Positions 9,344 to 46,876 of a stretch of 64,000 nucleotides of DNA are shown here, in pieces. The notes under the pieces are model-generated. The model was not told the origin of the DNA. It saw only the letters and a program-made list of their open reading frames with translations, and searched no databases. This DNA comes from an uncultured Candidatus Saccharibacteria bacterium (lineage in GTDB: Bacteria > Patescibacteriota > Minisyncoccia > Phycocordibacterales > UBA12088): NCBI GenBank assembly GCA_964562615.1, contig CAZLUD010000001.1:327628-391627 (forward strand). Reading direction: 5' to 3'. The translations under genes were made by a program, and so were the position numbers. Position 1 is the first letter of the stretch; each line of letters starts with the position of its first letter.

Positions 9344-9835
9344 CTATGGTATAAGTACGGCACGAGGGTTTATAAGGTGTACATGAAAATGATCAGGGAT
9401 AGATTTAAATTTTTTTGTCGCTTCGATTACATACTGATAGGTATCAGCAATGTGTGTATGTTTAATCTCAATCAATTCCTCCTTCTCTTCTTGGGTTAGC
9501 CCTCGTTCGTCTATGTGACGAATTGGAATAAGCATGTGGTGTACTTCAGCAATCTTTCCGTACGGGAAGGCATTGATAACTATCCGCCAATGAATAAATG
9601 TGTGAATCGCTGGTTCATCACTACAAAGCGGACATCCAGCATCTACTAGTAGCGACTTACGACGAGCTCTATATGCTTCTTCTACCTCGGGTAGTCTCAG
9701 TGATACTGGTGTATACGACATAGTCTGAGTATACATCAATGTTGGTAGTAGATAAAAATAGTGGTCTTGTAACGCTTTTATATCAAACAACACTCGATTC
9801 GGGGCGCCCTTGGCCAAAATATTATCGTGCCACAA
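9344..9835 (-). CDS. HIT (histidine triad) family hydrolase. The annotated N-terminus (MWHDNILAKGAPNRV) is encoded by a repeat unit, so the true start is probably an internal Met.
   Basis: HFHVHLI histidine-triad motif; CPLC zinc-type motif. The first ~15 codons lie in repeat R2, which is duplicated at 10048-10080. Confidence 0.55.
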   Translation of the reverse strand: MWHDNILAKGAPNRVLFDIKALQDHYFYLLPTLMYTQTMSYTPVSLRLPEVEEAYRARRKSLLVDAGCPLCSDEPAIHTFIHWRIVINAFPYGKIAEVHHMLIPIRHIDERGLTQEEKEELIEIKHTHIADTYQYVIEATKKFKSIPDHFHVHLINPRAVLIP

Positions 9836-10126
9836 GGGTACTTCAAGAAATATAGTCGCGTTGCTCCTTATTTCTTTGGTCGCTCGAAGCGTTGCTTCTC
9901 TCTCTGTATTTTGTCGGGGCGCCGAGAAGGGGTCAGCTCACTAAGTACATTGAGTCGCAAACTCCTCAATGTACTAAGTGGCTCCTCCCCGGCCTCGCAG
10001 CCCCATTTCTCACGTTGTTCGAAATGGGGACCCGCTGCTCCGGCTTTCGATTCTCGGCGCCCTTGGCCAAAATAGTATCGCTCGAAGCGTTGCTTCTCTC
10101 TCTGTATTTTGTCGGGGCGCCGAGAA
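9795..10126. repeat. tRNA-Pro-linked composite repeat. A 46-bp direct repeat (9883-9928 and 10081-10126) contains the tRNA-Pro 3' end plus 30 nt of trailer. A ~33-bp direct repeat sits at 9795-9826 and 10048-10080. An inverted copy of the tRNA T-arm/acceptor (TTTCGATTCTCGGCGCCC, 10045-10062) faces the direct copy (GGGGCGCCGAGAA, 9915-9928) across a 120-nt hairpin-rich core. The segment 9827-9882 is an inverted copy of 10915-10975.
   Basis: Aligned by eye. Core hairpins: ACTAAGTACATTGAG/CTCAATGTACTAAGT and CCCCATTTC/GAAATGGGG. Confidence 0.6.
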
Positions 10127-10182
10127 TCGAACTCGGGCTACACGGTCCCAAACCGTGCGTACTACCTCTATACGACGCCCCG
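10112..10182 (-). tRNA. tRNA-Pro (anticodon TGG).
   Basis: Minus-strand cloverleaf: acceptor CGGGGCG/CGCCCCG, anticodon stem CACGG/CCGTG with loop TTTGGGA, T-arm CCGAG-TTCGATT-CTCGG. 71 nt; no CCA encoded. Confidence 0.8.
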
Positions 10183-10253
10183 CGAGACAAAACAATATGA
10201 CTCGTTAAGATAACGTACCACAAAATAAGAATAAAATGAAGCGTATAGCGCTC

Positions 10254-10742
10254 CTAGAAAGAGACATTCTCAAAGAATTCACACTTTGCTAGTTTTTTAT
10301 CTTCATCTATATAGACCGTAACAAGATCAACCTGCCACTCCCCCACCTCACGCTCTTCCAGATACATTTCTATGGTGCTAAGTAATTTTGCCAGCTTGTG
10401 GCGAGTCATGTTTTCTTCAGGTCGTATACCCGGTACTGACTGGACATACAATCCATTAGACTCGGCAATAGTACATACAGCACTCTTTACTTCTATAAAA
10501 TGAGTTACTCCCCCGCTCATGGTTACAACATCTATCTCTCCATGATTAGTACGAATATTTCTATCCACCACATCGTGACCTCTATCTAAAAGCCACTTCA
10601 CGGCCAAATCCTCACCTAATTTTCCTGTCTTTTGAGCGGTAGTTGTACCATAGTTCCACATATTCATAGTATAAGCCATATTCTGGTATTTTGGTAGAAA
10701 AAGTCCCTTTATAAGAGACCAAAAAAGTCGTCCTTTATACAC
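10254..10742 (-). CDS. YraN/UPF0102 family endonuclease-like protein (restriction-endonuclease-like fold).
   Basis: Pattern GEDLAVKWL...GHDVVDRNIRTNHGEIDVV...THFIEVKS resembles the YraN consensus (GE..A..YL...G...L.RN.R...GEIDLI....FVEVK.R). The start is probably an internal Met. Confidence 0.5.
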   Translation of the reverse strand: MYKGRLFWSLIKGLFLPKYQNMAYTMNMWNYGTTTAQKTGKLGEDLAVKWLLDRGHDVVDRNIRTNHGEIDVVTMSGGVTHFIEVKSAVCTIAESNGLYVQSVPGIRPEENMTRHKLAKLLSTIEMYLEEREVGEWQVDLVTVYIDEDKKLAKCEFFENVSF

Positions 10743-10879
10743 TAATCCCCAGAGTTATCCACAGTTTTGACCTATTCTGTGTATTTCTTTTAGGCTGTTT
10801 CGGCACGAATTATACCGAGGATAGGCGCAATAATAGGATGAAAGAATAAAGCAAAATATATCCCTAATGCTCCCGCTCT

Positions 10880-11175
10880 CTCCTCTTATTTAGTGTGCGA
10901 CCTAATTTTGTTGAGCGACCAAAGAAATAAGGAGCAAAGCGACTATATTTCTTGAAGTACCCCTTGTGGCACGTAGCGATTACAAAATGGAAGTACTCTC
11001 TGTGGTGCGACCTAATTTTTACGACCGTAGGGAGATAAAAATGGAAGTACTCTTTGTGGTGCGACCTAATTTTGTTGAGCGACCAAAGAAATAAGGAGCA
11101 AAGCGACTATATTTCTTGAAGTACCCCTTGTGGCACGTAGCGATTACAAAATGGAAGTACTCTTTGTGGTGCGGG
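10880..11175. repeat. Tandem array of two ~115-bp units (approx. 10893-11009 and 11056-11172) separated by a truncated 54-bp unit. Each unit ends with the motif AAAATGGAAGTACTCT(C/T)TGTGGTGCG. The array begins with a duplicate of the tRNA-Gly(GCC) trailer (CTCCTCTTATTTAGTGTGCG).
   Basis: Direct repeats aligned by eye. This is not CRISPR-like: the units are long and the spacer is itself repeat-derived. Confidence 0.7.
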
Positions 11176-11309
11176 TAGGGAGAATCGACCCGCTTTTGCT
11201 AAGCTCGCAATGCTCGCTAAGCACGCTGGTCGCGCCTCGCCGACAATTTTACTTCGCTTTGCTACGTAAAATCGTAGACCGGCTCCGGCGTTCGATTCTC
11301 CCTACCCGC
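11169..11309. repeat. tRNA-Gly(GCC)-linked palindromic element. Perfect 18-19 bp terminal inverted repeats (GTGCGGGTAGGGAGAATCGA ... TTCGATTCTCCCTACCCGC) are copies of the T-arm/acceptor 3' strand of the adjacent tRNA-Gly, and they flank a ~100 nt core. In tRNA sense, the distal arm reads ...CCCGCACCA, ending in a CCA that the genomic tRNA lacks.
   Basis: Seen directly. The core is homologous to the Lys-linked element at 61377-61526 (shared blocks GCTAAGCAC, TCGCCGACAATTTT, CGTAAAATCGTAGACC, GCTCCGGCGTTCGA). Confidence 0.7.
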
Positions 11310-11354
11310 CTAAAATATATCGTCAAAGCTCCGCTTTCTCCTCTTATTTTAGTG

Positions 11355-11425
11355 TGCGGGTAGGGAGAATCGAACTCCCGTCTGCTCCATGGCAAGGAGC
11401 CGTCATACCACTAAACTATACCCGC
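11355..11425 (-). tRNA. tRNA-Gly (anticodon GCC).
   Basis: Minus-strand cloverleaf: acceptor GCGGGTA/TACCCGC, anticodon stem GCTCC/GGAGC with loop TTGCCAT, T-arm GGGAG-TTCGATT-CTCCC. 71 nt; no CCA encoded. Confidence 0.8.
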
Positions 11426-11491
11426 AGTTGAGGTGACATACGCCCCTCAATTGCTCAAAACAATACCACTTATCCCCTCCCCTCTCAAGTT

Positions 11492-11701: not shown

Positions 11702-11764
11702 GATACTGCGCAGTTAGCTATAGAATTAAATCCCCTATTATTCGCTTTCCACTCCTTTGTTTTG

Positions 11765-11836
11765 TGCGCCCGCCAGGACTCGAACCCAGAATAACTGATC
11801 CGAAGTCAGTTGTGATATCCATTTCACCACGGGCGC
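11765..11836 (-). tRNA. tRNA-Arg (anticodon TCG).
   Basis: Minus-strand cloverleaf: acceptor GCGCCCG/CGGGCGC, D-arm GTGA-AATGGAT-ATCAC, anticodon stem ACTGA/TCAGT with loop CTTCGGA, T-loop TTCGAGT. 72 nt. The trailer CACAAAACAAAGGAG resembles the other tRNA trailers. Confidence 0.7.
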
Positions 11837-15042: not shown

Positions 15043-15993
15043 CTATCTTTTTGTGTGAAAACGTTTATGCACCTCACGGAGGTGTTTGTCTGTAACGTGT
15101 GTATACACTTGTGTAGTAGCAATATTTGCATGACCAAGCAGTGCTTGTACAGAACGCAAGTCTGCACCATTTGAAAGAAGGTCGGTGGCAAATGAGTGTC
15201 TAATGACGTGAGGGGTAACTTTTTTAGTAATACCTGCTTTTATGGCGTACTGCTTGACTATTCTTTCAACAGAGCGGGGATTGAGGCGAGTGGTGGTGGC
15301 GTTTTTTGAACGATTTGATGTCTGCACAAACAGCGCATCATCCATATCTTTTCTTTTGACTAGATAGGCGCGAATAGATTCACGCGCTGAATCAGACAAA
15401 AATACAACGCGCACCTTTTCACCTTTACCACGTACAGAAAACTCTTCCTTTGAAATATCTAAATCACGAGAAAGCGAACAAAGCTCTGACACGCGCAATC
15501 CAGTAGAAAAAAGCAGCTCGAGCATGGCTCTATCACGGAGTGATTTAACATCATCACCATTAGCTGCGGCCATTAAACGGGTGAGTTCTTCAAACGATAT
15601 AAGATCGAGTGATCGTTCTCCAACTTTAGCTAGCTCTATTCGCTCAGGTGAAAGAGATTCAATGCCACGCTTTCTTAAATATTTTAGAAACGCACGTAAA
15701 GCAATAAGGTAGTAATTCTGTGTCTTTTTTTTGAGTGTTTCTTTTCTTCCACCTATTGCAGCGCCAGATTCTTGGCGATTTAGCCATAATCGGTATTCTC
15801 TAAGAAGAGTGTCATCAATGGTTGATGGATTTTCTACCTTTGCAAAGGCAAGAAAACGAGAGAGGTATCGCTCATAATTCTCTATAGTATTGAGAGAGCG
15901 TCCTTTTTCAATCTCAAGGTGTTCTAAAAACTCACGCTTTAGTGTTTCTATGTGCGTGGATGACATGTCACAAGTATGACATCTATGTCGCAA
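15043..15993 (-). CDS. Tyrosine site-specific recombinase, XerC/XerD-like.
   Basis: C-terminal catalytic region HVIRHSFATDLLSNGADLRSVQALLGHANIATTQVYTHV with the catalytic Tyr. The N-terminal SAM-like domain is typical of Xer recombinases. Confidence 0.8.
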   Translation of the reverse strand: MRHRCHTCDMSSTHIETLKREFLEHLEIEKGRSLNTIENYERYLSRFLAFAKVENPSTIDDTLLREYRLWLNRQESGAAIGGRKETLKKKTQNYYLIALRAFLKYLRKRGIESLSPERIELAKVGERSLDLISFEELTRLMAAANGDDVKSLRDRAMLELLFSTGLRVSELCSLSRDLDISKEEFSVRGKGEKVRVVFLSDSARESIRAYLVKRKDMDDALFVQTSNRSKNATTTRLNPRSVERIVKQYAIKAGITKKVTPHVIRHSFATDLLSNGADLRSVQALLGHANIATTQVYTHVTDKHLREVHKRFHTKR

Positions 15994-27052: not shown

Positions 27053-28090
27053 ATGAATGAATCCATACTTCCAAGTAAGCAGTTTATTATTACCGTGATT
27101 GTCATTACGGTACTACTCGGTGGTGGCATCGCGGTATTTTTGAGTACACGAGAATCAGCAAGTAAATTTTTTGCCGAATCAAACGAAAAAGAGATGCGAG
27201 AAATCGCAGAAAAGCTGGTTGCCTCTGACGAAGATGAAGATGGGCTTCTTGATTGGGAAGAATCTCTTTGGAAAACTGATGTAAAAAACCCTGACACTGA
27301 TAGCGACGGCACTTCAGATGGCGAAGAAATCCGCATCGGAAGGGATCCACTTAAACCAACTCCTGGTGATGAAATTACTGTTCAAAGTATTGAGGTATTT
27401 AGAGATACTGCGGTAACTGATGCGCAAATTAAAAACAGCAACCTAACCGCTGAATTTGCCAAAAACTTTTTTGTTGAATACGCAAAAACCAAAGAGGCAG
27501 GTTTACCAGTTGGGATCATGGGAGCAAGTATAGAAAAGGTAGAGAACTTGATTCCGCAAGACCAGTACGAGAATAGAGAGCCTCTTTTTACAGAAGAAGA
27601 TATTTTGATAGCGCCATCTGAAGATAATTACTCCCTACGCGAGTATGGAAATGCTGTTGGGCGTGCATTTGAAAATCACCCGGTTGTAGGGGAGAACATG
27701 CTTGATGTTCTCTATCGAGCGTTGCGTAGCGGAAATAAAGCTGAGCTCGACAAACTACGAGATGCTGCTTCTTCAGTAAGCCTGCTCGCTGAAGAGATTA
27801 TTTCGATTCGAGTCCCTGAACCTCTCGTAGAAAATCATCTTGATTTGCTTAATGCTCTAGCATTTTTTAATGAGATACTTGTCGCATTTGGCAATACATA
27901 CGAAGATCCGCTTGGTGCAACTATTGCAATGACCTACTACCCTAAGACCGCTAAAGAATTAGCAATTATCGGGATATCAACTGCAAAGTACCTTGAGTCG
28001 AGAAATATTGTATACACACGAAATGACCCTGGACATGTATTCAATGAACTACTTGTAATTTATAAGAGATCGCCGAATCTATTTATATGA
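27053..28090 (+). CDS. Hypothetical protein with an N-terminal transmembrane anchor and an acidic Asp-rich segment (DEDEDGLLDWEE...DTDSDGTSDGEE).
   Basis: Hydrophobic N-terminus. Ca-binding-like D-x-D repeats are possible. Confidence 0.35.
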   Translation: MNESILPSKQFIITVIVITVLLGGGIAVFLSTRESASKFFAESNEKEMREIAEKLVASDEDEDGLLDWEESLWKTDVKNPDTDSDGTSDGEEIRIGRDPLKPTPGDEITVQSIEVFRDTAVTDAQIKNSNLTAEFAKNFFVEYAKTKEAGLPVGIMGASIEKVENLIPQDQYENREPLFTEEDILIAPSEDNYSLREYGNAVGRAFENHPVVGENMLDVLYRALRSGNKAELDKLRDAASSVSLLAEEIISIRVPEPLVENHLDLLNALAFFNEILVAFGNTYEDPLGATIAMTYYPKTAKELAIIGISTAKYLESRNIVYTRNDPGHVFNELLVIYKRSPNLFI

Positions 28091-29808
28091 AATCAGTTGC
28101 TAGGGTAGTCACATCTCTTCTGACTCGCTACGTAGCGCCATCTACCATAATAATGGCGTTATTTGCTCCTTCAGTATTTGTTATTGCAACCCCACAAAAA
28201 ACTGAGGCTATTTTTGGATTTGGTGACACTGTAGTTGAGGTGGGTGCAAACCTATATACAAATGTTGCCAATACCGTGGAAGCAGTTTGGGCAACCCTCA
28301 AGGAAGCATCGCTTGATGGTATTGCGTGGTACCTCGCTAAGTTAGTAATACAACGAATGACCGTTGAGATTATCAACTGGATCAATAGAGATTTTGAGGG
28401 CTATCCACAATTTGTTAATAATCTTGGCGTATTTCTTACTGATGTAGTAGACCAAGCCACCGGGGCATTTATACGCGAAAACAATCTTGAGTATTTATGT
28501 AACCCACTGAGTATTCGTATTGCGCTGTTAACGTATCAATACCAACCCATTCAACAGAGGTATTCGTGTACGCTTTCTCAAGTGGTAAACAACGTAGACT
28601 CATTCATACAAGGAAACTTTGCGGAGGGAGGTTGGACGGGATGGTTTTCACACGCCACCATCCCTACCAATAACTTGCCTGGGCAATATCTTGTCATACA
28701 AGGAGAGCTTGTTAAGTACGCCAACAAAAAAGAAGAGAATCAAAAAAACTACCTTTCCTTTGGGCAAGGCATGTTCTCAGACCTTTCGTTTGAGTGGTGC
28801 CAATCAGTAGAAAATACTGAAGGGGTTCCAGATGGATCAGGGGGCGTTCGTTATCAAACCGGTATGACAAGAGATGATTGTCAAATAAAAACACCAGGTA
28901 AATTGATAACAGATCAACTAAGTTGGGTCACGACAAGCCCACTCAGACAACAAGAGCTTGCTGATGAACTAAACGAAGCGATTTCAGCAATCCTCAGTAC
29001 GCTCATGAGTAAATTGCTCTCTGATGGTCTTGCATACCTTACCTCAAGTGGTCTTGGAAGAGGTGCAGCTGGCTCTTCGTATGATGATCTTTTGCGAGAA
29101 GATATTGCACGCCAACAAGAGCGCGTAACAGAAGACATTATCCTTCAGATTGATCAACAAATTGAAGAGGAGCTTGCGCTTGGTAGAGAGCTTGGCTGTT
29201 ATGGCGAAGATCCTGGAGACGGTGATGGAGGGGGCGGGGGTGATGGAGGGGGAGGTGATATTGGTGGAAATGAATTTCACGATGTGCCTATTGGTGACCG
29301 ATCAATACTTCCTGATACCACCACATTCTCAAATATCAGATATACCCCAGCTGATTCATACGCAGCGTACCAAACATCAGGACTAGAACCTCTTACGCCA
29401 ACAGAGTACTATCAAGAACTCACCCTTGCAGGACTCATCGACAGTCCAACCAGCACTACCTGGAGTGAGAATTATACCCTTAGAGAGGTTGGTATCGACG
29501 AGGGCGCAATCATTATTGAGAGAACCGGCGAAGATGCATATCGAGTACTATATGACGCTGACGGAGACGATGTGCGAGAAGTTATCGCAACATCAAGAGA
29601 AGTAGAGGGTCAGTCTGGTACATACACCTTTACCCGCGTCACCGGAGAAGACCTTGGATTTCAAACGCTTGGGGTAAGAAGTAGTGTTGCGGCAGGAGCA
29701 GTAAATGAGGCCTTGAGAGAGTACTACCTAATTAACGAAAACCCTCCTCAAACAAAACTGGAGCCAGTTGGAGGTACAGGCTCAAATGGCACAACAGGGA
29801 ATCGTTAG
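28087..29808 (+). CDS. Hypothetical secreted or membrane-anchored protein (573 aa) with a Gly/Asp-rich linker (GDGDGGGGGDGGGGDIGG).
   Basis: N-terminal hydrophobic segment. Translationally coupled to the upstream gene. Confidence 0.35.
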   Translation: MKSVARVVTSLLTRYVAPSTIIMALFAPSVFVIATPQKTEAIFGFGDTVVEVGANLYTNVANTVEAVWATLKEASLDGIAWYLAKLVIQRMTVEIINWINRDFEGYPQFVNNLGVFLTDVVDQATGAFIRENNLEYLCNPLSIRIALLTYQYQPIQQRYSCTLSQVVNNVDSFIQGNFAEGGWTGWFSHATIPTNNLPGQYLVIQGELVKYANKKEENQKNYLSFGQGMFSDLSFEWCQSVENTEGVPDGSGGVRYQTGMTRDDCQIKTPGKLITDQLSWVTTSPLRQQELADELNEAISAILSTLMSKLLSDGLAYLTSSGLGRGAAGSSYDDLLREDIARQQERVTEDIILQIDQQIEEELALGRELGCYGEDPGDGDGGGGGDGGGGDIGGNEFHDVPIGDRSILPDTTTFSNIRYTPADSYAAYQTSGLEPLTPTEYYQELTLAGLIDSPTSTTWSENYTLREVGIDEGAIIIERTGEDAYRVLYDADGDDVREVIATSREVEGQSGTYTFTRVTGEDLGFQTLGVRSSVAAGAVNEALREYYLINENPPQTKLEPVGGTGSNGTTGNR

Positions 29809-29817
29809 AACAGCAAT

Positions 29818-31596
29818 ATGAATGCAACAAGATCAATCATAATTTCATCGCTTCTGATCATCAGTGCGTACGCATCTTCTGTTTGGATATATTCCCCAAA
29901 GCTCTCTGCTCAGACACCTCCTCAAGAACCAGTTACCTGTGAAGAAGTAGACACCACCATCGCACAGCTCACCGCCCTTCGAGCACGAGCAGAGGCAGCA
30001 GACACTCCAGAGGAGATGCAGGCAGTAGTGGATGAATTTAATAGACTAGAGACACATAATGGTAACGATTTGGTGGTAGCACAACAAGAAAATCAACTTG
30101 AAGATAGAAGAGCATATTTAATAAGTAGAATAGAGGACACAAAGGAGGTTGATGCAGCACAAGGTGGAAGAAATGCAGAAGAGCTTGATGAGCTACTTGC
30201 ACGAGCAGAGGCTGCAGATGACTTTACCGAGCTTGGACGAGTAGAAGGAGAGCTTGGTGAGATACGAGGGAGATTGGGGCTTAGCGGTGGAGGAAGTGGT
30301 GGGGGTGGGGGAGGAGGGGGAGGTGGAGTAATTGGTGGAGGAGGCGATGGATCATGGGCTGGAGGAGTGCTTGATGGCAGTGGCAAAAACAACAGAGCGC
30401 CCGTTCCTGCATTTACAAGAACAGTTGTGCTTGGGCCAGGAGATGATATACAAGGGGCAATTAATAGTGCTACCCCAGGCACTGACATCCAACTCAAAAG
30501 TGGTACGTACAATTACTCCAACCTAAGCATAAGCGGAAAGGGTGGAAATCCGAACGCATGGATACGGCTTGGCAATGCTCCTGGAGAACATCCTATTCTT
30601 AGGCCGACAGGAGGATATGCAACCCTAAACGTGGCAGGCGGTTCGAGCTATATTCTAATTGAGGGACTGGAAATAAATGGGAGTAGGGTGGGAACAACAC
30701 TTCCTGATGGGACATATATTGGATCATGGAATGATATGCTTGCCTACTCTAATAGGAGTTGCAGTAATATCGGATACCATTGCAATCAGGGTATAATGCT
30801 CGGTTGCGGAGGCTGTAATACCAATCAAGGGCACCACATTGTCGTTCGAGATAATGTTACCCACGACTTTGGAGGCTCTGGTATTAGCACCTTTGGTGTT
30901 GATTATGTGATTATTGAAGACAATGTTTCTTTCAATAATGGCAATTTCTCTCGTTATGGGGAGAGTGGTATATCTGCTGGATTTCCAGCACTGGTAGGGG
31001 GAGGAAGCATGAGTGACTACGGCTTTATTGTAAGGAGAAACACCACCTACGATAATAAGCAATACTTGGGGTCAATAGACTGTGGTTGTGGCCCAGGTAT
31101 TACCGATGGTAACGGCATAATTCTTGACGGTATGGATCATAATGGTGCATACAGAAGAGTTCTTGTTGAGAGTAATCTTTCGTACAACAATGGTGTTGAG
31201 GTGCCTGGGCAGGGTGTGCATGGGTCAGGAATGCATTCAGTCGATTCTTCTAATGCAGAGTTCATAAATAACACCGCGTATGGTAATGCAGCTGCGCAGA
31301 TATTTGCATGTTGCGCCTCAAACAACAATAAGTTTTACAACAACATAGCAATAGGCAATAGGCCGTTGTTTGCTGCCCACGGTGTCCCTTTTACTGGAGG
31401 ATGTAACATATCGAGTGGTTCTGAAAATGTACCTACTACTGTTACTGACCCAATGTTTGTAAACCCTAGCGCTGGAGACTTTAGCTTGCGGGCGGGATCT
31501 CCGGCAATAAACGCCGCATGCGGACAAACCGCATCAAGCGACCTTAATGGAGCCCTCGCAAATGGGGCAAAAGATATCGGTGCTATAGAAATGTAG
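29818..31596 (+). CDS. Secreted protein with signal peptide, shared coiled-coil N-module, Gly-rich linker (GGGSGGGGGGGGG) and a C-terminal right-handed parallel beta-helix domain (pectate-lyase/polysaccharide-lyase-like repeats).
   Basis: Recurrent N-x-G/NNG-type beta-helix coil motifs (VRDNVTHDFGGSGIST, IEDNVSFNNGNFSRYGESGISAG, VESNLSYNNGVEVPG, INNTAYGNAAAQ). Confidence 0.5.
   Translation: MNATRSIIISSLLIISAYASSVWIYSPKLSAQTPPQEPVTCEEVDTTIAQLTALRARAEAADTPEEMQAVVDEFNRLETHNGNDLVVAQQENQLEDRRAYLISRIEDTKEVDAAQGGRNAEELDELLARAEAADDFTELGRVEGELGEIRGRLGLSGGGSGGGGGGGGGGVIGGGGDGSWAGGVLDGSGKNNRAPVPAFTRTVVLGPGDDIQGAINSATPGTDIQLKSGTYNYSNLSISGKGGNPNAWIRLGNAPGEHPILRPTGGYATLNVAGGSSYILIEGLEINGSRVGTTLPDGTYIGSWNDMLAYSNRSCSNIGYHCNQGIMLGCGGCNTNQGHHIVVRDNVTHDFGGSGISTFGVDYVIIEDNVSFNNGNFSRYGESGISAGFPALVGGGSMSDYGFIVRRNTTYDNKQYLGSIDCGCGPGITDGNGIILDGMDHNGAYRRVLVESNLSYNNGVEVPGQGVHGSGMHSVDSSNAEFINNTAYGNAAAQIFACCASNNNKFYNNIAIGNRPLFAAHGVPFTGGCNISSGSENVPTTVTDPMFVNPSAGDFSLRAGSPAINAACGQTASSDLNGALANGAKDIGAIEM
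29954..30320 (+). repeat. Copy 1 of a 367-bp near-identical intragenomic repeat encoding the shared N-terminal module. It pairs with 31741-32107.
   Basis: Nucleotide alignment by eye; only a handful of mismatches. Confidence 0.85.
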
Positions 31597-31607
31597 ATTG
31601 TTGCTTC

Positions 31608-33065
31608 ATGAAAAACGCAATCAGTATAAGTAGTTTTGTATCACTCGTAGTGATCGCGCTATCGTGCGTGAGCATCATTCCAACAAGAAGTAGTGCGCAA
31701 ACACCACCGCAAGAACCGATTACTTGCCAAGAAGTTTCTTCCACCATCGCACAACTCACCGCCCTTCGAGCACGAGCAGAGGCAGCAGACACTCCAGAGG
31801 AGATGCAGGCAGTAGTGGATGAATTTAATAGACTAGAGACACATAATGGTAACGATTTGGTGGTAGCACAACAAGAAAATCAACTTGAAGATAGAAGAGC
31901 ATATTTAATAAGTAGAATAGAGGACACAAAGGAGGTTGATGCAGCACAAGGTGGAAGAAATGCAGAAGAGCTTGATGAGCTACTTGCACGAGCAGAGGCT
32001 GCAGATGACTTTACCGAGCTTGGACGAGTAGAAGGAGAGCTTGGTGAGATACGAGGGAGATTAGGGCTTAGTGGTGGAGGAAGTGGTGGGGGTGGGGGAG
32101 GAGGGGGCACAGTAGGTGGAGGAGGCGGGGGCACCACCACACCAGGAACAGGGGTGGGCTCAGGTACCGCTGCGGGTACACCAACAGACACTGGCTTTGC
32201 TCCAGCAGGGTATACACTTGCGTGGAATGATGAATTCAATTCTCTTAGCTTAGGAAGTGGTTCAGCGTTTAGATGGACGCCATTTGATACGCTTGCTGCA
32301 AATGCTGGATATGATGCAAAAGGAAGAATACTTGCAAGTAACAGCTCTGATGCTATATGGGTTGCTGATTACGAAACAAATGCAGGTGGGACACGAACGT
32401 ATGGTGACGCATTTAAGGCAGCCGGCACCTACGGTGAGGGGCCATTCTTCCATGAGGTAAGTGATGGCGCACTTGCTATGCGTGCGTATCCAGTACCAAG
32501 CTCAGTACGCAACGAATTTATTGCGTATGGATGGCCGCAGGGTGCTCCATACGCCGCAGGTGGAATATTTGGATCACTCTCACATACCCAAACATACGGC
32601 TACTATGAAGTGCGGCTGCGTGTAAATTCAATAACAAGAGGCCAACATTTTGCGCTTTGGCTACTCCAAGACGACCTTGCATGGCCTCCTGAGATAGACA
32701 TGCTTGAGGTTATTGGTGAAAATCCTCAGTTTTATCACACTACCGTACACGGCGAAGGGCCAAATGGCTCTGACCCAACCACCTCATTTAAGCTGCTTCC
32801 AGCAGGAGGGAGCGGGACATGGCACACCTACGGATTTTTGTGGACACCTGAAAGTATGCGATTTTTTGTCGATGGAAAGGAGTATTTCTTAAGAGAAAAT
32901 TATGGGGAAGGGGCAGAAATAGGAACATTACCTAACTTTGTAAACAAGCCAATGTACCTCCTTGCAACCTGGGAAATGGCAAGCTATTGGCCAGGAGATC
33001 CTGATGCAACTACCGTGTGGCCAGCAGAGGTTGAGCTTGATTACGTCCGCATCTACAAACCATAG
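31608..33065 (+). CDS. Secreted protein: the same N-module plus Gly-rich linker as 29818-31596, fused to a glycoside hydrolase family 16-like (beta-glucanase/laminarinase-type) domain.
   Basis: GH16-like motifs WNDEFN and catalytic E-I-D-M-L-E (PPEIDMLEVIGE). Confidence 0.55.
   Translation: MKNAISISSFVSLVVIALSCVSIIPTRSSAQTPPQEPITCQEVSSTIAQLTALRARAEAADTPEEMQAVVDEFNRLETHNGNDLVVAQQENQLEDRRAYLISRIEDTKEVDAAQGGRNAEELDELLARAEAADDFTELGRVEGELGEIRGRLGLSGGGSGGGGGGGGTVGGGGGGTTTPGTGVGSGTAAGTPTDTGFAPAGYTLAWNDEFNSLSLGSGSAFRWTPFDTLAANAGYDAKGRILASNSSDAIWVADYETNAGGTRTYGDAFKAAGTYGEGPFFHEVSDGALAMRAYPVPSSVRNEFIAYGWPQGAPYAAGGIFGSLSHTQTYGYYEVRLRVNSITRGQHFALWLLQDDLAWPPEIDMLEVIGENPQFYHTTVHGEGPNGSDPTTSFKLLPAGGSGTWHTYGFLWTPESMRFFVDGKEYFLRENYGEGAEIGTLPNFVNKPMYLLATWEMASYWPGDPDATTVWPAEVELDYVRIYKP
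31741..32107 (+). repeat. Copy 2 of the 367-bp near-identical repeat (pairs with 29954-30320).
   Basis: Nucleotide alignment by eye. Confidence 0.85.
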
Positions 33066-33131
33066 CGGCGGTACCGACCACACAACAAGAAACTGTGGAG
33101 TAATCTATGCTTCACACGCTAACATGGTGGT

Positions 33132-35558
33132 ATGATAGGTGTATCGCTGTGCATCTTGCACTGTTATATGGCTGCATCACCATTACATAATTTGTATACT
33201 CGCATAAAAAACTTGGTGGTATGTGGATTTGCTGAGCATAAACGCATACTCGCTATCTCGCTTGTGGTAGTGGTGACGCTACTTTTTAGTGCTACTCCAT
33301 ACGCAACACACGCTGCCAATTTGTGGGAAATTATAACCACACCACAGCTTATGTTTGCGTGGGTTGGCTCAGGAGTGTTGTGGCTCATGAGCGGTATCTT
33401 GGGTATTACGGCAATCCTCCTCAATATCACAATTTTGCAAACCGTAACCGGGATGGGAAATCACATCAACGACATAATAGGTATACAAATTGCCTGGGCA
33501 CTACTACGTGATATGGCAAATATATTGTTTATCTTTGGCATTGTATACATAGGCTTGAATCTTATTCTTGGCAACAATAGACACGGGCATCAGCAAGCAC
33601 TTGCACGACTTGTGATTATCGCGCTCGTCATTAACTTTAGTCTCTTTATAACAAAAACCGTAGTCGAGACATCGAATGTAATGGCGAACACGATATTTAG
33701 ACTCATTATTCCTCCGGGCACAACTGGGAGTCAAGCGTGTGATGGAAGAAGCACGCTTCCAGAAAACGTAATACAATGCGTAAATTTTGGTATTACAGGA
33801 ATTATTAATAACTCCCTTGGTCTTACTACGGTATTTAACGTTGGGGGTACTGCAAACTCAGCTGGATTTACCTCTCCAACACTTAACAGCGCTACAGCAA
33901 TTGATGCGTCTAAAATCTTCTACATAACAGCACTCGGTTCAATATTTATTCTCATTACTGCGTTTGTCTTTGCGTCCGCTGCCGTGTTGTTGGTTATTAG
34001 ATTTGTCATACTGATTATACTCATGGTGTTTTCACCGCTTGCGTTTGCGGCGTGGATACTGCCTTCAACGAGTGGTTACTTTTCTTATTGGTTAAAATCA
34101 CTTCTCAATCAATCGTTTTTTGCGCCTGCCTACATGCTTATGATGTGGATCGCAATAAAAATAATCGAGGGGTATGGTGTCTCTACGGTTACTGGTGTTG
34201 CCACACGATCAAACAATTTTGGCGCAGCGCTCTTGGGCGCAAATGTTAGCTTTGCAAACGTATTCTTAAACTTTGCCATTATCACCGTATTTATGGTGGC
34301 AGCGCTTGTAGTTGCAAAGAAACTTGGCGCCATTGGCGCTGATAAGGCATACGGCATTGGTAAGGGATGGGTCAACACCGCACAGTCAACCGCGTATAAG
34401 TACAAGAGCACAATTGCGGCTGGAGCAGCGGGTGCAACTGTATTTCCTGCGCTTGTTGGAGGGGGGGCACTCCTTGGCGCAGCGGCTGGTGTTGCTGGGT
34501 GGAAGGGAACGAGAGTTGGCACGAAGGTAATTGCTGACGAGAGTGCAAGGTTTGCCGGCAGAAAGGTAAACGCGATAAATGAAAGATTGATGAAGGCCCC
34601 AGTAAAAGAAGGTGGTGTTAAAGACACAATAAGAAAAGCGACAATTGGACGATTAGACAATGCACTAGGCTACAGCCAAACAGTGGCAGCTGATGTGAAG
34701 TCAGCACAAGAGAAAGTAAAAGCCCTTTCTAGAGATGGAAATACAAAGGGATCATCTGATTTCCTTCTCGCACAACGTGAAGACGTAAGAAATACGCTAT
34801 TTGCAGGACTATCACCATCTGAACAAATTACTGTGGGGGCAGAGATGGGTAAGAATGTAGTGACTCGAGACGGACTGGTTGATAAGAAAGCTACGGATAA
34901 AAATATCAAGAAAAAAGCCGTCGCACTCTCAAGCCTACGTGAAAGCGCAAGAGAAAAATACCTTGAAGCCATGACAAAGGATTTTGCAAACGACTCAAAA
35001 GAGTTGTACAAACAAATCTCAACGCTTAATGGTGATGATCTAACCTACGCATACTCAAAAATGACTCCACGCATCAGAGCGGCGTACGAAACAGAACTTA
35101 ACAAGGCGACTGGAAATGATACTCGCACAAAATCTCTTAGAAAGACAATATCAATTGAGGATCAAGAAAAAACAGAGAAAGAAGCAGGTGAAGTAAAAGC
35201 TCGTACAGAGAAAAAATCAAGATCTGGAGACCTTATCACCTTGATACAGCAACATCAAACACTCTCTACAACACCAACAACCTCAAATCCATCTTCACCT
35301 ACCGGCACAGAGATTGATAATAAAATCCGTAACATTATTAGAGTAATGGGCGACAAAGAAGTAACGGATCTAAAACCAGATGTGTTGAAGAGTAAAGAAT
35401 TTGCAAAGCATGTAACAGTAGGAATGCTCTCTAAAATTGCTGCGGTAGACAATATCACGCAAGAGACCAAACAAACACTTAGAGATAATGTTATGAGTGT
35501 AAACAATACAAAAGGAATCAGTTGGCTACAAGACAAAGGTAAAGATTTATTCCAATAA
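33132..35558 (+). CDS. Polytopic membrane protein, VirB6/TrbL-like component of a type IV secretion system. It has a long hydrophilic C-terminal tail. The start is probably downstream of 33132.
   Basis: Six or more transmembrane segments in the first ~400 aa; Gly-rich intramembrane stretches. It is in a cluster with a VirB4 ATPase and PrgI-like proteins. Confidence 0.45.
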   Translation: MIGVSLCILHCYMAASPLHNLYTRIKNLVVCGFAEHKRILAISLVVVVTLLFSATPYATHAANLWEIITTPQLMFAWVGSGVLWLMSGILGITAILLNITILQTVTGMGNHINDIIGIQIAWALLRDMANILFIFGIVYIGLNLILGNNRHGHQQALARLVIIALVINFSLFITKTVVETSNVMANTIFRLIIPPGTTGSQACDGRSTLPENVIQCVNFGITGIINNSLGLTTVFNVGGTANSAGFTSPTLNSATAIDASKIFYITALGSIFILITAFVFASAAVLLVIRFVILIILMVFSPLAFAAWILPSTSGYFSYWLKSLLNQSFFAPAYMLMMWIAIKIIEGYGVSTVTGVATRSNNFGAALLGANVSFANVFLNFAIITVFMVAALVVAKKLGAIGADKAYGIGKGWVNTAQSTAYKYKSTIAAGAAGATVFPALVGGGALLGAAAGVAGWKGTRVGTKVIADESARFAGRKVNAINERLMKAPVKEGGVKDTIRKATIGRLDNALGYSQTVAADVKSAQEKVKALSRDGNTKGSSDFLLAQREDVRNTLFAGLSPSEQITVGAEMGKNVVTRDGLVDKKATDKNIKKKAVALSSLRESAREKYLEAMTKDFANDSKELYKQISTLNGDDLTYAYSKMTPRIRAAYETELNKATGNDTRTKSLRKTISIEDQEKTEKEAGEVKARTEKKSRSGDLITLIQQHQTLSTTPTTSNPSSPTGTEIDNKIRNIIRVMGDKEVTDLKPDVLKSKEFAKHVTVGMLSKIAAVDNITQETKQTLRDNVMSVNNTKGISWLQDKGKDLFQ

Positions 35559-35570
35559 ATACTAATTGCC

Positions 35571-36167
35571 ATGGATGAACTAGAACTAAAGTTTAAAGAG
35601 CACTTTGATCGACTACCAGAGGTTGTGCAAGAGTATGTGCTTCATGGTAATTACTCATCTGAAATAGCGTCCATAGGGCATCTATTCAAATTTCACATTG
35701 ATACGATGGGGCAACTTTCCGATTTTGTCACCTATGTCTTGGTTGGTATTATACCCACCCACGAAGCAGAGAAGAAATTTACTGAGTTCTTACCTGAGTA
35801 TTCAGCTCAAACAAAAGCAATCTTACAAGAAATTGAGCGCCGAATCTTGAGTAGTGTACGCACCATGACCACAATTAAATCTGATTCGACTGCTCCCATT
35901 GAACAGGTGACGGCACCGAGTGCTATTTCCAATCTCCCTACAACACCAGCACAACAAGCACAGACTGTGCCAATAAACACCGCACAAGTACCTGTTGCTG
36001 TTTCGCCACAAAAATTACCAATGGTTACACCAGCCACTCCACCAACAAGTCAAACAGCACCGAACCAAAATGCTTCTACACCAATGAAAACGGTAGGGAA
36101 GGAGATAGTTATTCCAGACACTGCACCGAAAAAATCAACGGATCCCTATCGAGAGCCAGTTGACTAA
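35571..36167 (+). CDS. Hypothetical protein with a Pro/Thr/Gln-rich C-terminus, associated with the T4SS cluster.
   Basis: ORF, tightly spaced within the cluster. Confidence 0.35.
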   Translation: MDELELKFKEHFDRLPEVVQEYVLHGNYSSEIASIGHLFKFHIDTMGQLSDFVTYVLVGIIPTHEAEKKFTEFLPEYSAQTKAILQEIERRILSSVRTMTTIKSDSTAPIEQVTAPSAISNLPTTPAQQAQTVPINTAQVPVAVSPQKLPMVTPATPPTSQTAPNQNASTPMKTVGKEIVIPDTAPKKSTDPYREPVD

Positions 36168-36197
36168 ATAATGTTTTCATGGTATAAATAATATAGT

Positions 36198-37523
36198 GTG
36201 CTCTTTGACAGAGCGCTTTCTAAACACTTAACTGGAGGTCATCCGATGACGAACAGTGTACTGGATCTGGTCTCGATTATCCTATTTCCACACACGTTTG
36301 CGCTTTTTGTGGGTCTGTTTTCGGTGCTATACGCACCATTTACCATTAACTCAGCAAAAAATCCTGCGAGATTTCTCTCCATGTTCACACGTGTCTCTCC
36401 AAACCAACTCAAAATTATTGAGTGGGGTGGAACATTTGTGAGGGTTATTTGTGTCAACCCTGGGTACGCCTTCAGAGCGTGGGTTGATAGTGGTGGTAAC
36501 ATGTTGCCTTCAAAAAACAACTTACATGAATGGGAGGTGGTTGAAAGACCTCCAACCTGCCCTCCAATGCCAGAAGTTGTGCCTGGAAGTATATTTTCTG
36601 GGCGCTACACGAAATGGCTTTCTCCGCTCTTTGTGTTTAGACTGGTATCCTACAAGATAACAGGTCTTCACTTTTATGGCATCGCGCCATATGTGCAGGT
36701 CAGATCACAAGACTACAAGCGCGGAAAGGTGCCTGACTCTGGTGAAATATCACTAGAGACCGTAACACAGGTTGTAGATGAGACCGATCATTTTAGACTA
36801 AGTGCGTTTACAAACCTCACCGTATCGGGAAAGCTCCCAACACAGCAGGGGTGGGGGGTGTCTGTACTTGTTGCGCTTGAGCTGTCAATTACCGACGCTC
36901 CGAGCGCTGCCTATTCGGTGAATAGGTGGGACCAAAACATACAGCAACGCGTTGTTGCTGCCATTGCTGAAGCGATGCATGGAGCAAACATCGGTTCGGT
37001 ATATGGAGGTGGTGATATCTCTCACAAGAACGCCATCGTGGATAAGTGTTGGTTCTTCTTGACGGGGCTTGATACTAACGCACGAGCCACCAATGCCAGA
37101 TACTTCCGTACTGTTGCTGATTTGGGAAGCATCAACGTGCACAACATTCGAGTTGTGGATATGAATGCTGATCAGCATTCACAAGAAGCGGTGGAGCAAG
37201 CACTCTCTGCTGCCTTTGTTGGGACCCAGGAAGGAAACAAGATCAAGAACAAACTTACCCTTGAAGGAGAAGGTAGGCAGGCTTTCCTGAGTAACCAAAT
37301 TAGCGGCGTAAGCGAGAGCCTAACCGACCAAGAAAAAATGAGGTTGGCCATACGCATCATTGAGGGGGAGGCACTTCGAAACGCAGTGATAGATGGAGGC
37401 GCGAAGGTAATAGCCACGTTTGGTAACCAGCAGCAAGAACCAGGCGCTCCGCTTTCGTTGCCTCAATTTATTGCGGCAACGAAAGAAGATTCTCAGCAGA
37501 ACACGGAAGGAGACCGTCAATGA
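36198..37523 (+). CDS. Hypothetical membrane-anchored protein (441 aa), associated with the T4SS cluster.
   Basis: N-terminal transmembrane segment (LVSIILFPHTFALFVGLFSVLYAPF). Its stop overlaps the next gene. Confidence 0.35.
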   Translation: MLFDRALSKHLTGGHPMTNSVLDLVSIILFPHTFALFVGLFSVLYAPFTINSAKNPARFLSMFTRVSPNQLKIIEWGGTFVRVICVNPGYAFRAWVDSGGNMLPSKNNLHEWEVVERPPTCPPMPEVVPGSIFSGRYTKWLSPLFVFRLVSYKITGLHFYGIAPYVQVRSQDYKRGKVPDSGEISLETVTQVVDETDHFRLSAFTNLTVSGKLPTQQGWGVSVLVALELSITDAPSAAYSVNRWDQNIQQRVVAAIAEAMHGANIGSVYGGGDISHKNAIVDKCWFFLTGLDTNARATNARYFRTVADLGSINVHNIRVVDMNADQHSQEAVEQALSAAFVGTQEGNKIKNKLTLEGEGRQAFLSNQISGVSESLTDQEKMRLAIRIIEGEALRNAVIDGGAKVIATFGNQQQEPGAPLSLPQFIAATKEDSQQNTEGDRQ

Positions 37524-38206
37524 CACAAGAGGGAGGTGGGTGGACGCTGGATATACTTCCCATAATACCAGCATCAATAGAGATAGCTGTAATACTAGCT
37601 ATCCTTTTCACCCTTCTGGTGGTAATCATTTCTGTTTTCAAATCGGAATCCTCAGGAGCAGCGCCCTCAACCACTAAACGTATCTCGCTTAGTGGGAGTC
37701 TTATACCACTTGGGGGGGTAATCCTGATCGGTGTCACCATTCTTGTGGTAGCACTGTACTGGCCATCACAAACCCCATTCCTCGCATTGGTGTTGCCAAT
37801 ACTCTGGCACTACACCGCCTCAAGGACAAAAGCTGAGGCGCATTTTTGGGGGATCACGTGGAGGGATGGTGAACAATACCTTTCCTCGTACTTGATGCTC
37901 CAATTTATGTTCCAAATGCTGTTCCTTGTAGGGGTTATTTTACTCCTACTATTGTGGGGGCCTTGGTTCCTTGCTAAGGCACTCCAAGGATCCGCGCTCT
38001 ATATAATTCTTGGTGTTGGTATAATTTTTACCACCTGGTTCTTTGAGAGCTGGGGCAAATTTACCAGGATGATGCTATATGCATTTGGTGGAGGCGTCAC
38101 CCTATTATGGTTGTTTGGCAGAAAACTTGCTGCCCAAAATGATTTCGCCACCATAGAGTTGTGGCGAAATAACATACTCGAGCTAGATAAGCTATTTTAT
38201 CTCTAG
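37520..38206 (+). CDS. Polytopic membrane protein (about 6 transmembrane segments), associated with the T4SS cluster.
   Basis: Hydrophobicity; ATGA overlap with the upstream gene. Confidence 0.4.
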   Translation: MTQEGGGWTLDILPIIPASIEIAVILAILFTLLVVIISVFKSESSGAAPSTTKRISLSGSLIPLGGVILIGVTILVVALYWPSQTPFLALVLPILWHYTASRTKAEAHFWGITWRDGEQYLSSYLMLQFMFQMLFLVGVILLLLLWGPWFLAKALQGSALYIILGVGIIFTTWFFESWGKFTRMMLYAFGGGVTLLWLFGRKLAAQNDFATIELWRNNILELDKLFYL

Positions 38207-38280
38207 CTCGAAGAGGCTTGAAGCCGTGATGCAATATCATCACGGCTTCTTTTATTTGTGATACACAGTCAAAAGCAGAG

Positions 38281-38784
38281 TTGCCAACAATTATTTATAT
38301 AAATGACTTAGCTATAGGTTGTATTCGAGGTACAATATACTCACATACCCCTATGCGTTATCACGTACCACAATTTATTGATATCGAAGATAAAGTGGTT
38401 GGACCACTTACCATAAAACAGTTTGTGTACATCGCGGGAGGTGTAGGGTTTGTTGCACTTCTTACCGCATTTATGCCGTGGCAGTGGGCTGCTATTGTGG
38501 GTAGTCCGCTTGTACTCCTTGGATTACTCCTTGCCTTCTATCAAGTAAACAATCAACCTTTTATCGCAATAATGGAAGCGGCATTTTATTACCTTGTGAG
38601 TAAAAAACTCTATCTTTGGAAAAAGAATACTGGGGTAAAAGATGAAGCAAAAGAAATGGTAGGGAAGGAAGCGCTCGTGCATACTCCCTATGTGCCAAAA
38701 GTCTCTAATAATAGACTTAAAGAGCTTGCGTGGTCACTAGACATAAAAGATAAAACTGGTGGTTCAACACTAAATCAATCGTAG
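38281..38784 (+). CDS. PrgI/TcpE/VirB3-like small membrane protein of Gram-positive-type T4SS.
   Basis: Motif GPLTIKQFVYIAGGVG followed by two transmembrane helices. It lies immediately upstream of the VirB4-like ATPase. Confidence 0.45.
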   Translation: MPTIIYINDLAIGCIRGTIYSHTPMRYHVPQFIDIEDKVVGPLTIKQFVYIAGGVGFVALLTAFMPWQWAAIVGSPLVLLGLLLAFYQVNNQPFIAIMEAAFYYLVSKKLYLWKKNTGVKDEAKEMVGKEALVHTPYVPKVSNNRLKELAWSLDIKDKTGGSTLNQS

Positions 38785-38785
38785 T

Positions 38786-39430: not shown

Positions 39431-39435
39431 TATAT

Positions 39436-41271: not shown

Positions 41272-41279
41272 TACGGGGT

Positions 41280-41756: not shown

Positions 41757-41789
41757 AGGAGGGGGGTAAAAAGGTGGTATACTTTTTTT

Positions 41790-42806: not shown

Positions 42807-42812
42807 TATTGT

Positions 42813-43298: not shown

Positions 43299-43374
43299 GC
43301 ACTTTGCTTGACTTGCGCTTGGGTCTAATTAGTTGTATAAAATATACAGTGAAAACCTGAAGTAGGAGGTACTC

Positions 43375-45237: not shown

Positions 45238-45261
45238 GGTACCGAGTACGTATACAAGTTA

Positions 45262-46867: not shown

Positions 46868-46876
46868 GAAATGGTA

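Follow-up and report, generated by a model that had tools for sequence, protein, structure and literature searches.

A nested set of repeats downstream of tRNA-Pro

We analyzed a 64,000-nt stretch (the window) of the genome of an uncultured Candidatus Saccharibacteria bacterium (GenBank assembly GCA_964562615.1, contig CAZLUD010000001.1, positions 327,628–391,627), and in particular the short repeats on the 3′ side of its tRNA-Pro gene. We refer to the units that these repeats delimit as cassettes: small elements that lack an open reading frame (ORF) and are built in part from copies of the 3′ end of the adjoining tRNA gene. The tRNA-Pro(TGG) gene lies on the minus strand at 10111–10182 (ARAGORN; Rfam tRNA model, 60.6 bits), so that downstream means toward lower coordinates. 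The segment within this gene that runs from the T-loop to the 3′ end, designated X, is copied downstream in both orientations. A repeat search found a 49-nt direct repeat, 100% identical, at 10078–10126 and 9880–9928 (spacing 198), which consists of the 3′-terminal 15 nt of tRNA-Pro and 34 nt of trailer. An earlier sequence-only reading of this DNA had given this duplication as 46 bp.

In tRNA sense, on the minus strand, the proximal copy (10078–10126) comprises the last 15 nt of the gene and the 34-nt trailer T1, with its small GAAGC-AAC-GCTTC hairpin. It is followed by a linker (10063–10077) and by X′ (10046–10062), located by repeat search and fold. X′ is a 17-nt inverted copy, 100% identical to 10115–10131, of the T-loop, T-stem, and acceptor of tRNA-Pro (positions 54 to about 70), as had been noticed earlier, and it provides the 5′ strand of a closing stem, P1. 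Next come two core hairpins, delimited by fold together with the family model described below (P2) or repeats (P3). P2 (9992–10044) has a GCC/GGC base helix of 3 bp, a GGA/GA purine internal loop, and then a long hairpin, and it carries the family signature as a GCCGGAG...CGAGGC block; P3 (9929–9990) has a variant base that lacks the GTCGCG/CGTGAC motif. The distal 49-nt copy (9880–9928) begins with a direct copy of the tRNA 3′ end, X_d (9914–9928), which supplies the 3′ strand of P1, and continues into a second copy of T1. The stretch between the repeats thus folds as a Y, with two strong hairpins on a 12-bp closing stem formed by X′ and the distal tRNA-end copy. This fold has an energy of -82.1 kcal/mol (z = -8.1), which none of 200 shuffles equaled, and bears out the two strong hairpins proposed for the core.

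Further repeats link the locus to its surroundings. The block GCTCCGGC(T/G)TTCGATTCTC, previously singled out as a junction shared with the tRNA-Gly and tRNA-Lys elements, occurs at 10037–10055 and, at 95% identity, at 11282–11300 in the Gly locus. A second direct repeat, 34 nt rather than 33 bp in length and 91% identical, lies at 9794–9827 and 10047–10080; its distal copy (minus strand) is a truncated, coreless older copy of linker and X′ (CGATAATATTTTGGCCAAGGGCGCCCCGAATCGA) and is the remnant of a second cassette unit. Between this remnant and the complete cassette, the 50-nt segment 9836–9885 is 98% complementary to 10913–10962 and 11077–11126 in the array at the Gly locus, as had been recognized in slightly different limits. 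It is a fragment of an H unit, a second mini-repeat described below, inverted with respect to the array copies and identified by repeat search and by comparison with the allele of a related strain (L082). At the tRNA-Pro locus there is, in sum, a single complete cassette without an ORF, accompanied by a truncated copy of greater age and by a fragment of a second mini-repeat.

The same ordered module follows four of five tRNA genes

Four of the five tRNA genes in the window (Gly-tcc, Pro, Gly-gcc, and Lys) are followed, in tRNA sense, by one ordered module. It consists of T, a hairpin-forming and often terminator-like spacer of about 45 nt; X′, an inverted copy, 10–20 nt long, of the neighboring tRNA from T54 outward; a structured core of about 90–120 nt; and X_d, a direct copy of the tRNA from T-loop to discriminator. 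X_d carries CCA in the Lys module and also in the Gly-gcc module, where no CCA is encoded by the gene itself. Folding is more favorable for the tRNA-sense strand than for the opposite one (-82.1 versus -78.1 and -76.6 versus -68.6 kcal/mol).

All of these modules are on the minus strand. For tRNA-Gly(GCC) (11354–11425), T occupies 11310–11353, X′ 11290–11309, a core of the kind that we call type B 11189–11289, and X_d with CCA 11167–11188. The tRNA-Lys(TTT) gene (61597–61672) has a trailer at 61526–61596, X′ at 61514–61525, a type-B core (K1) at 61393–61513, and X_d with CCA at 61378–61392. Behind tRNA-Gly(TCC) (227–298) are a trailer (194–226), X′ (181–193), a type-C core (93–180), and X_d with a trailer copy (53–92); the 40-nt direct repeat here takes in the trailer hairpin. 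This type-C core (..GGAAGGCAGTGAGCAAAGCGAACGTTGGAAAACCGAAGGTTTCCAAGG..) recurs downstream of tRNA-Arg in L080, and a less clear instance follows tRNA-Gly-tcc in L027. The fifth gene, tRNA-Arg(TCG) (11764–11836, minus strand), is followed by a 26-nt scar (11738–11763), recognized by comparison with L082 and with the sister species L002. The scar corresponds to the initial portion of a cassette trailer; L082 has the complete cassette, of 130 nt, and L002 has none.

H units constitute a second mini-repeat family, made up of hairpins of about 53 nt (CAAGAGTACTTCAAGAAATA..TATTTCTTTGGTCGCACCA) or of 164-nt composites. They occur in the window at 10895–11173, 61318–61377, and 9836–9885, and at about 2140–2210 in L083. 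They directly follow the ..ACCA of a tRNA-end copy and themselves end in ..CGCACCA; both orientations are found, and copy number varies between strains. The site at 10895–11173 (minus strand) is a tandem array of H-type units, each ending in ..GGTCGCACCA, that was defined by its repeats and differs in copy number in L082. Past it lies a displaced copy of the tRNA-Gly trailer (10853–10895, minus strand; repeat search).

The trailers of many cassettes share a pattern of AAAATAAnGAG, a 5-bp hairpin with a GNA loop, and GCGACTATATTTTG, ending 4–12 nt before X′. Examples are found in the window at 11310–11353 and 10063–10110, and in L027, L049, and L075. This pattern could serve as a protein site, belong to the palindrome, or include a promoter element of the -10 type. 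A consensus promoter scan bearing on the GCGACTATATTTTG motif gave 3 matches where 3.9 were expected, hence no enrichment, and revealed no consistent -35 element.

A cassette family on tRNA and tmRNA genes of Patescibacteria

By type, the genome sampled by the window belongs with the Paceibacteria/Kaiserbacteria among the Patescibacteria. We retrieved 80 syntenic loci of related Patescibacteria through the CCA-adding enzyme gene that adjoins tRNA-Arg; these include complete chromosomes. Counting as X′ any exact inverted copy, 10 nt or longer, of a tRNA's own 3′ end that lies no more than 450 nt downstream, we found X′ behind 51 of 256 tRNAs, mostly 35–58 nt from the gene, compared with 1 of 256 in the upstream control. 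The order T, X′, core, X_d is the same throughout these loci, on which at least four unrelated core types occur. A covariance model of the type-B core built from other genomes only (R1) gave 43 matches in 0.89 Mb of related genomes. It recovered the window cassettes of Lys (48.6 bits, E = 1.2e-11) and Gly-gcc (40.5 bits, E = 2.7e-9), and the Pro cassette, which has a variant P3 base and consequently scored only 23.7 bits with filters off.

Scanning metagenomes with the signature of the type-B core, the commonest type, yielded at least 120 loci. Among the 120 listed, 91 lie 40–80 nt behind a tRNA of the same sense, and every isoacceptor family is represented. Four of the type-B matches listed (L134, L159, L241, and L188) are situated 60–70 nt behind ssrA, the gene for transfer-messenger RNA (tmRNA), and up to 21 nt of their arms match the T-arm and acceptor of the tmRNA. 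The 23-mer of the Pro P3 hairpin had no matches in the metagenomes. Further type-B cassettes lie behind loci that match neither ARAGORN nor Rfam (L154, L197, L156, L158, L162, L214, L226, L194, L201, L219, and L237), where upstream motifs such as AAATAGGTTCGA.. or ..GTTCTGAAAGCC.. recur. These loci may represent unrecognized Patescibacteria RNA genes, or else cassettes whose tRNA has been lost.

The arms are specific to the gene that they adjoin. Beyond the universal TCGAA, their complementarity extends for a mean of 6.6 nt with the neighboring tRNA, as against 1.3 nt with other tRNA types, and they match tRNA positions 59–65 with at most one mismatch in 40 of 43 cases. An exact copy of the acceptor 3′ strand terminates 61 of 86 cassettes. 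The direct repeat ends 0–4 nt past the tRNA end in 51 of 60 cases, which places the 49-nt repeat of the Pro locus in a minority class that arose by secondary duplication. Distal copies followed by CCA where the gene itself has none are found in the window (11167–11188), in L002, L011, L024, and L053, and in about 8 of 53 metagenomic cases; most distal copies run on into trailer-like A runs instead of CCA. Pairing of the arms is confined to the T-loop and T-stem in many copies, which consequently lack a mimic of the acceptor, and in many an extra hairpin splits X′ into an acceptor-like and a T-stem-like part.

In Rfam 15, the window reaches a gathering score only for tRNA, and 9700–11450 gives nothing credible at E values up to 10. 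Our search of the literature found no description of tRNA-flanking cassettes with inverted plus direct copies. The cassettes are a widespread family of small, ORF-less hairpin elements of Patescibacteria that are attached to tRNA and tmRNA genes at their 3′ ends. Given their presence behind four of five tRNAs in the window, behind 51 of 256 elsewhere, and in metagenomes, together with the covarying core described next, the repeats at tRNA-Pro are the constituent parts of one defined family of elements, which recombination went on to reshuffle.

The type-B core is a covarying three-way junction on the tRNA-sense strand

An alignment of 36 type-B cores from different organisms gave a consensus three-way junction composed of P1, formed by the arms, P2, and P3. 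P1 and two anchor motifs were imposed by the way in which cores were selected; the other helices were not. P2 has a covarying base helix of 3 bp (GCC/GGC, GAC/GTC, or CGC/GCG) and a GGA/GA purine loop, and P3 has an invariant base, GGTCGC/GTGACC, with an invariant bulged A. Pairing was found in 96.2% of cells, compared with 75% in shuffles and no more than 45% with slid partners, and double changes affected 18 of 29 pairs. The covariation score was 0.55, which none of 500 shuffles reached, versus 0.17. One G·T/G·U pair occurs in all 36 sequences and a second in 20 of 36; both would be C·A mismatches on the opposite strand, which identifies the tRNA-sense strand as the one that folds.

Several features speak to whether the folded strand is DNA or RNA. 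We counted the motif GCGAAGC 48 times on the sense strand among the cassettes, about 10-fold above background, and its complement 3 times. The commonest terminal loops are cGNAg triloops (65 sense versus 4 antisense), and GNRA tetraloops number 28 sense versus 6 antisense. In DNA, GCGNAGC forms a mini-hairpin of extraordinary stability, familiar from single-strand initiation sites, and RNA versions of it are much less stable (PMC13037366). In many cases the T spacer is a perfect palindrome that mirrors the trailer of the tRNA gene and, where CCA is encoded, the TGG complement of that CCA; together, X, T, and X′ form one long hairpin with a median of 78% of positions paired. These mini-hairpins, triloops, and mirror copies favor a folded DNA strand over RNA. 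A kink-turn reading of the GGA/GA loop was rejected, as the bulge is 1 nt rather than the 3 nt of a canonical k-turn. We know of no hammerhead, twister, or other ribozyme core that the junction sequences match.

Near-identical strains differ in their cassettes

Exact-protein look-ups led us to independent assemblies that are 98.8–100% identical to the window; the look-ups for the UPF0102 protein and the cell-wall hydrolase returned no record. One of these assemblies, L082, matches the window across 1040 nt of the Pro locus with 98.8% identity, both repeat copies included, and the arrangement in the window is accordingly not an artifact of its assembly. Even at this level of relatedness (~99%), strains gain, lose, and stack cassettes and exchange cores. 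At the Pro locus of L082 the inverted H unit measures 107 nt, compared with about 60 in the window, and the Gly array is shorter by one 164-nt unit.

The most informative difference lies behind tRNA-Arg, where L082 has a 130-nt type-A cassette. The cassette-free species L002 reads tRNA-Arg..CACAAAAAG joined to TAGGGG, and the distal copy in L082 reads ..CACAAA joined to TAGGGT. This distal copy joins ..GGGCGCACAAA to TAGGGTATTT, which is the tRNA-Arg/trailer junction of L002; the distal copy, together with its flank, thus represents the end that the gene originally had, and the stretch between is what was inserted. If the distal copy is the original end of the gene, cassette insertion may also be one route by which an encoded CCA is lost. 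The tRNA-Pro site of L002 is likewise empty, with 54 nt separating tRNA and gene, compared with 389 nt in the window.

Three alleles were found at tRNA-Lys. Core K1 is the one present in the window; in L086 the same arms enclose another type-B core, K2; and L083 carries a tandem K2–K1. Starting from the tandem, recombination between repeated copies of X or X′ can yield either of the single alleles. The Pro P3 hairpin, moreover, is 97% identical to P3 of the tRNA-Gly cassette in L002, in genomes that are about 84% identical elsewhere. The sequence-only reading had seen in the region a hotspot of repeated recombination anchored on tRNA 3′ ends. The four strain differences uphold the instability and its anchoring; the idea of a local accident gives way to an ordered module that recurs widely. 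That reading had also held that identity of the region in distant relatives would argue for a conserved structured locus over recent recombination, and the result falls in between: the architecture is conserved, and the content turns over even between strains.

Several short-read contigs of this species in Logan start at or inside 3′ parts of tRNA genes, or at X′, namely L001 (11354), L089 (205), L085 and L087 (61640 and 61637), and L084 (61514). Such contig ends fit repeat-induced graph breaks or mixed alleles within samples.

Proposed insertion through a folded strand

Integron attC sites and the CTX-phage attP site recombine as folded single strands. By analogy, we propose that a folded single strand, employed much as attC or CTX-phage attP employs its own, is the form in which the ORF-less cassettes are inserted at tRNA 3′ ends, and that homologous recombination reshuffles them afterward; we put the probability of this reading at roughly 50%. 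A cassette mobilized in trans would enter as a folded single strand, in which pairing of X′ with X_d would rebuild a duplex identical to the target, the T-loop-to-acceptor part of the tRNA gene. Exchange of one strand by a site-specific enzyme at the 3′ end of the tRNA would follow, and the insertion would become fixed through replication. A single strand exchange of this kind would yield the order tRNA–X–T–X′–core–X_d–native flank. An enzyme of the IS200/IS605 HUH type, acting on single-stranded hairpins, could serve as an alternative catalyst. Later homologous recombination among X, X′, and T modules may have produced the 49-nt duplication, the truncated linker and X′ copy, and the inverted H fragment at 9794–10126.

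A number of observations weigh against this proposal. No catalyst was identified: the sole recombinase among the ORFs scanned in the 64-kb window is of the ordinary Xer type (15043–15993, 3.2 kb from tRNA-Arg), scoring 133 bits against an integron-integrase cutoff of 265, with Xer models matching best (NCBIfam), and neither a transposase nor a reverse transcriptase turned up when 30 ORFs of the window were searched with Pfam. We found no relative of the cassettes that carries an ORF; for none of 141 tRNAs with X′ is the distal copy more than 350 nt away. Among IMG/VR viral contigs, a type-B 15-mer had 33 matches, none in a cassette context, and a type-A motif had none, nor did we see an excised or circular form of a cassette. 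The strain alleles come from short-read assemblies, which are often broken at these very repeats. The purine internal loop, the invariant bulged A, and the 28 GNRA loops would suit a protein-bound RNA equally well. Finally, the arms always match the neighboring tRNA, so that a jump to a new tRNA requires either that both arms be re-templated or that the cores of resident cassettes be exchanged, and the model leaves arm re-templating and core exchange unexplained.

A further and doubtful reading is that X′ acts as a programmable guide. The cassette, as single-stranded DNA or RNA, would find the 3′ end of a tRNA gene by pairing, and X′ and X_d would be re-templated on the target, for example by heteroduplex repair, after which the same core could colonize any tRNA or tmRNA gene. 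If true, this would be a guide-directed, ORF-less mobile element served by a trans-acting enzyme, in the bacteria with the smallest genomes.

A possible source of single-stranded DNA is encoded in the window itself. The block 27053–47000 contains large plus-strand ORFs, mostly without Pfam match, and a VirB4/TraG-type ATPase (39436–41271), and it may specify a type IV secretion or DNA-transfer apparatus.

Alternative explanations

The strongest alternative to insertion as a folded strand, which we nevertheless consider rather unlikely, is that the cassettes are genes for tRNA-like non-coding RNAs, co-transcribed with the tRNA or transcribed just after it. The X′/X_d stem would mimic the stack of acceptor and T-stem, and so attract processing by RNase P, RNase Z, or the CCA-adding enzyme, with the core binding a protein; the genes would owe their spread to duplication, to gene conversion, and to homologous exchange following the uptake of DNA, and not to transposition. 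Strong covariation, the invariant G·U, the bulged A, a GGA/GA loop that resembles a protein-binding motif, and the better fold of the tRNA-sense strand all accord with this explanation, as does the cloverleaf-like outline of the many copies in which an extra hairpin splits X′. It would also accommodate a CCA in X_d that the gene lacks (Gly-gcc in the window and the metagenomic cases above), and allelic homologous recombination could yield every presence/absence allele. Yet at least four unrelated core types are found on the same arms, and different cores are stacked at one tRNA and lost between strains without visible consequence. A terminator-like hairpin often intervenes between tRNA and element, the acceptor goes unmimicked where pairing covers only T-loop and T-stem, and the commonest loops, cGNAg and GCGAAGC, are typical of stable DNA hairpins. 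Nor is there a match to an Rfam family or an enrichment of sigma-70-like promoter matches.

That the repeats are scars of ordinary integrase-bearing phages or islands at tRNA 3′ ends, compounded by local illegitimate recombination and involving no dedicated element, is very unlikely. A direct repeat of a tRNA 3′ end is the classical attL/attR footprint (PMC4383910), and the locus is unstable between strains. Such scars, however, would not share a conserved, covarying core of 100 nt over 80 genomes and 120 listed metagenomic loci, nor would they have an inverted target copy at a fixed distance, and no integrase or phage gene lies between any repeat pair. Conservation at the level of the family has already largely refuted this explanation.

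We regard as highly improbable a retro-element, in which a read-through transcript ending in a tRNA-like 3′ end (CCA) would be reverse-transcribed and re-inserted. The CCA that follows some distal copies of genes that encode none, and the complementarity of X′ to the tRNA 3′ end, reminiscent of a retroviral primer-binding site, first suggest it. It is opposed by X′ extending to T54, past the usual stop at position 58, by the A runs that take the place of CCA after most distal copies, and by the scan of window ORFs, which revealed no reverse transcriptase. The mirror copies, moreover, hold gene trailers, and TGG only where CCA is encoded, which is the mark of a copy made at the level of DNA. 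The chance that short reads mis-joined at tRNA genes created the nested repeats is practically negligible: short-read contigs of several runs do end exactly at tRNA 3′ ends or at X′, but an independent NCBI assembly has the whole Pro locus, NCBI and JGI assemblies have the Lys locus with the same junctions, and the architecture is found in 80 other genomes, complete chromosomes included.

Relation to known systems

The cassettes share features with several known systems and differ from each. Genes for tRNAs and tmRNA are classical integrase targets, at which the gene is regenerated and a 3′ fragment displaced (PMC4383910). Like the tyrosine-integrase islands of the T-loop sublocation (Islander definition, PMC4383910), the cassettes target the 3′ part of tRNA and tmRNA genes. 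They also share with these islands a regenerated gene, a displaced T-loop-to-3′ fragment at the far end that is joined to the original flank, and tandem accumulation at one tRNA. Unlike islands, they measure 75–190 nt, broadly 100–200 bp, without ORF or integrase, they add an inverted target copy and a conserved structured core, and they occupy most tRNAs (four of five in the window) rather than one or a few.

With attC (acted on by IntI) and CTX-phage attP(+) (acted on by XerCD), the cassettes have in common an imperfect inverted repeat, a one-strand fold, conserved unpaired features, a stem that rebuilds a target-like duplex, arrays with differing inner parts, and a size of about 60–150 nt. 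The R″/R′ core sites of integrons read RYYYAAC and GTTRRRY, and the T-loop sequence GTTCGAW agrees with the latter at 6 of 7 positions, a tentative resemblance; the distal arms of type B begin with CGAWTC and lack the GTT. In contrast to attC, the units are geneless, their stem sequence is set by the neighboring tRNA, and no IntI or attI lies near the cassette arrays (window ORFs scanned).

Palindrome-associated transposable elements (PATEs) of the IS200/IS605 group and repetitive extragenic palindromes (REP/REPIN), both moved by Y1 HUH enzymes, are similarly small and ORF-less, with strand-specific hairpins. They insert in one orientation 3′ of a recognized sequence without classical target duplication, as the cassettes may also do: these show hairpins and a strand bias, and their junction falls 0–4 nt past the tRNA end. 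They recognize their sites by base pairing, through an internal guide to the cleavage site; a guide in the cassettes would be 10–20 nt rather than 4 and identical to the tRNA end. No Y1 HUH transposase (TnpA/RAYT) was present among the window ORFs examined, in which no search was aimed specifically at Y1. A classification as miniature inverted-repeat transposable elements was rejected, as the inverted arms are target copies and the direct repeat is a tRNA end of 7–22 nt, or up to 49 nt after secondary duplication.

Lastly, tRNA-like RNAs (the tRNA-like domain of tmRNA, the bacterial Y RNA YrlA, plant mitochondrial t-elements, and mascRNA) resemble the cassettes in a stem that copies acceptor and T-stem and in a 3′ end at the discriminator, sometimes with CCA, at a position open to tRNA-processing enzymes. 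They differ in that the cassettes have a three-way junction in place of the T-loop and no D or anticodon arms, in that many cassettes lack the acceptor mimic, and in that no Rfam model matches.

Genomes of Patescibacteria, at less than 1 Mb, tolerate a structured cassette behind most of their tRNA genes. The cassettes are either very successful parasites, mobilized by an undiscovered route, or useful to the tRNA genes. If a folded-strand or guide mechanism is true, recombination of the attC/CTX type would extend to tRNA targets and to units without ORFs, and an undiscovered enzyme would be implied. The family provides a sequence-defined, highly repeated, and strain-variable marker, and it accounts for the breaks that short-read assemblies of these organisms show at tRNA genes. 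The displaced tRNA 3′ ends could mislead programs that search for tRNA fragments and islands.

Neighboring genes and the chromosomal origin

Immediately beyond the Pro repeats lies a gene for a HIT-like protein with an HFHVHL motif (9344–9721, minus strand), assigned by homology and from a strain record; the protein has no match in Pfam or NCBIfam. Its ORF can be extended to a TTG at 9835, and the first copy of the 34-nt repeat had been thought to encode its start. Homology with the closest species, L002, stops at 9737, and the gene of this relative starts at the ATG equivalent to 9721; the NCBI record of a 99%-identical strain gives a product of 125 aa from the same ATG. The gene hence begins at ATG 9721, outside the repeats, and the suggestion that recombination had remodeled its 5′ end does not hold.

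The minimum of the cumulative GC skew and a switch in gene orientation fall near 10–12 kb, away from dnaA and dnaN. A perfect DnaA box (TTATCCACA) lies at 10755–10763, between the UPF0102 gene and the Gly array; with 23 near-matches in the window against 18 expected, it is probably there by chance. We rejected it as an origin beside the array, since the real dnaA, a box cluster, and dnaN are found at 47–50 kb. The chromosomal origin likely lies at 47071–49790, where dnaA (47071–48453) is followed by six DnaA-box-like sites (48454–48647) and by dnaN (48690–49790).

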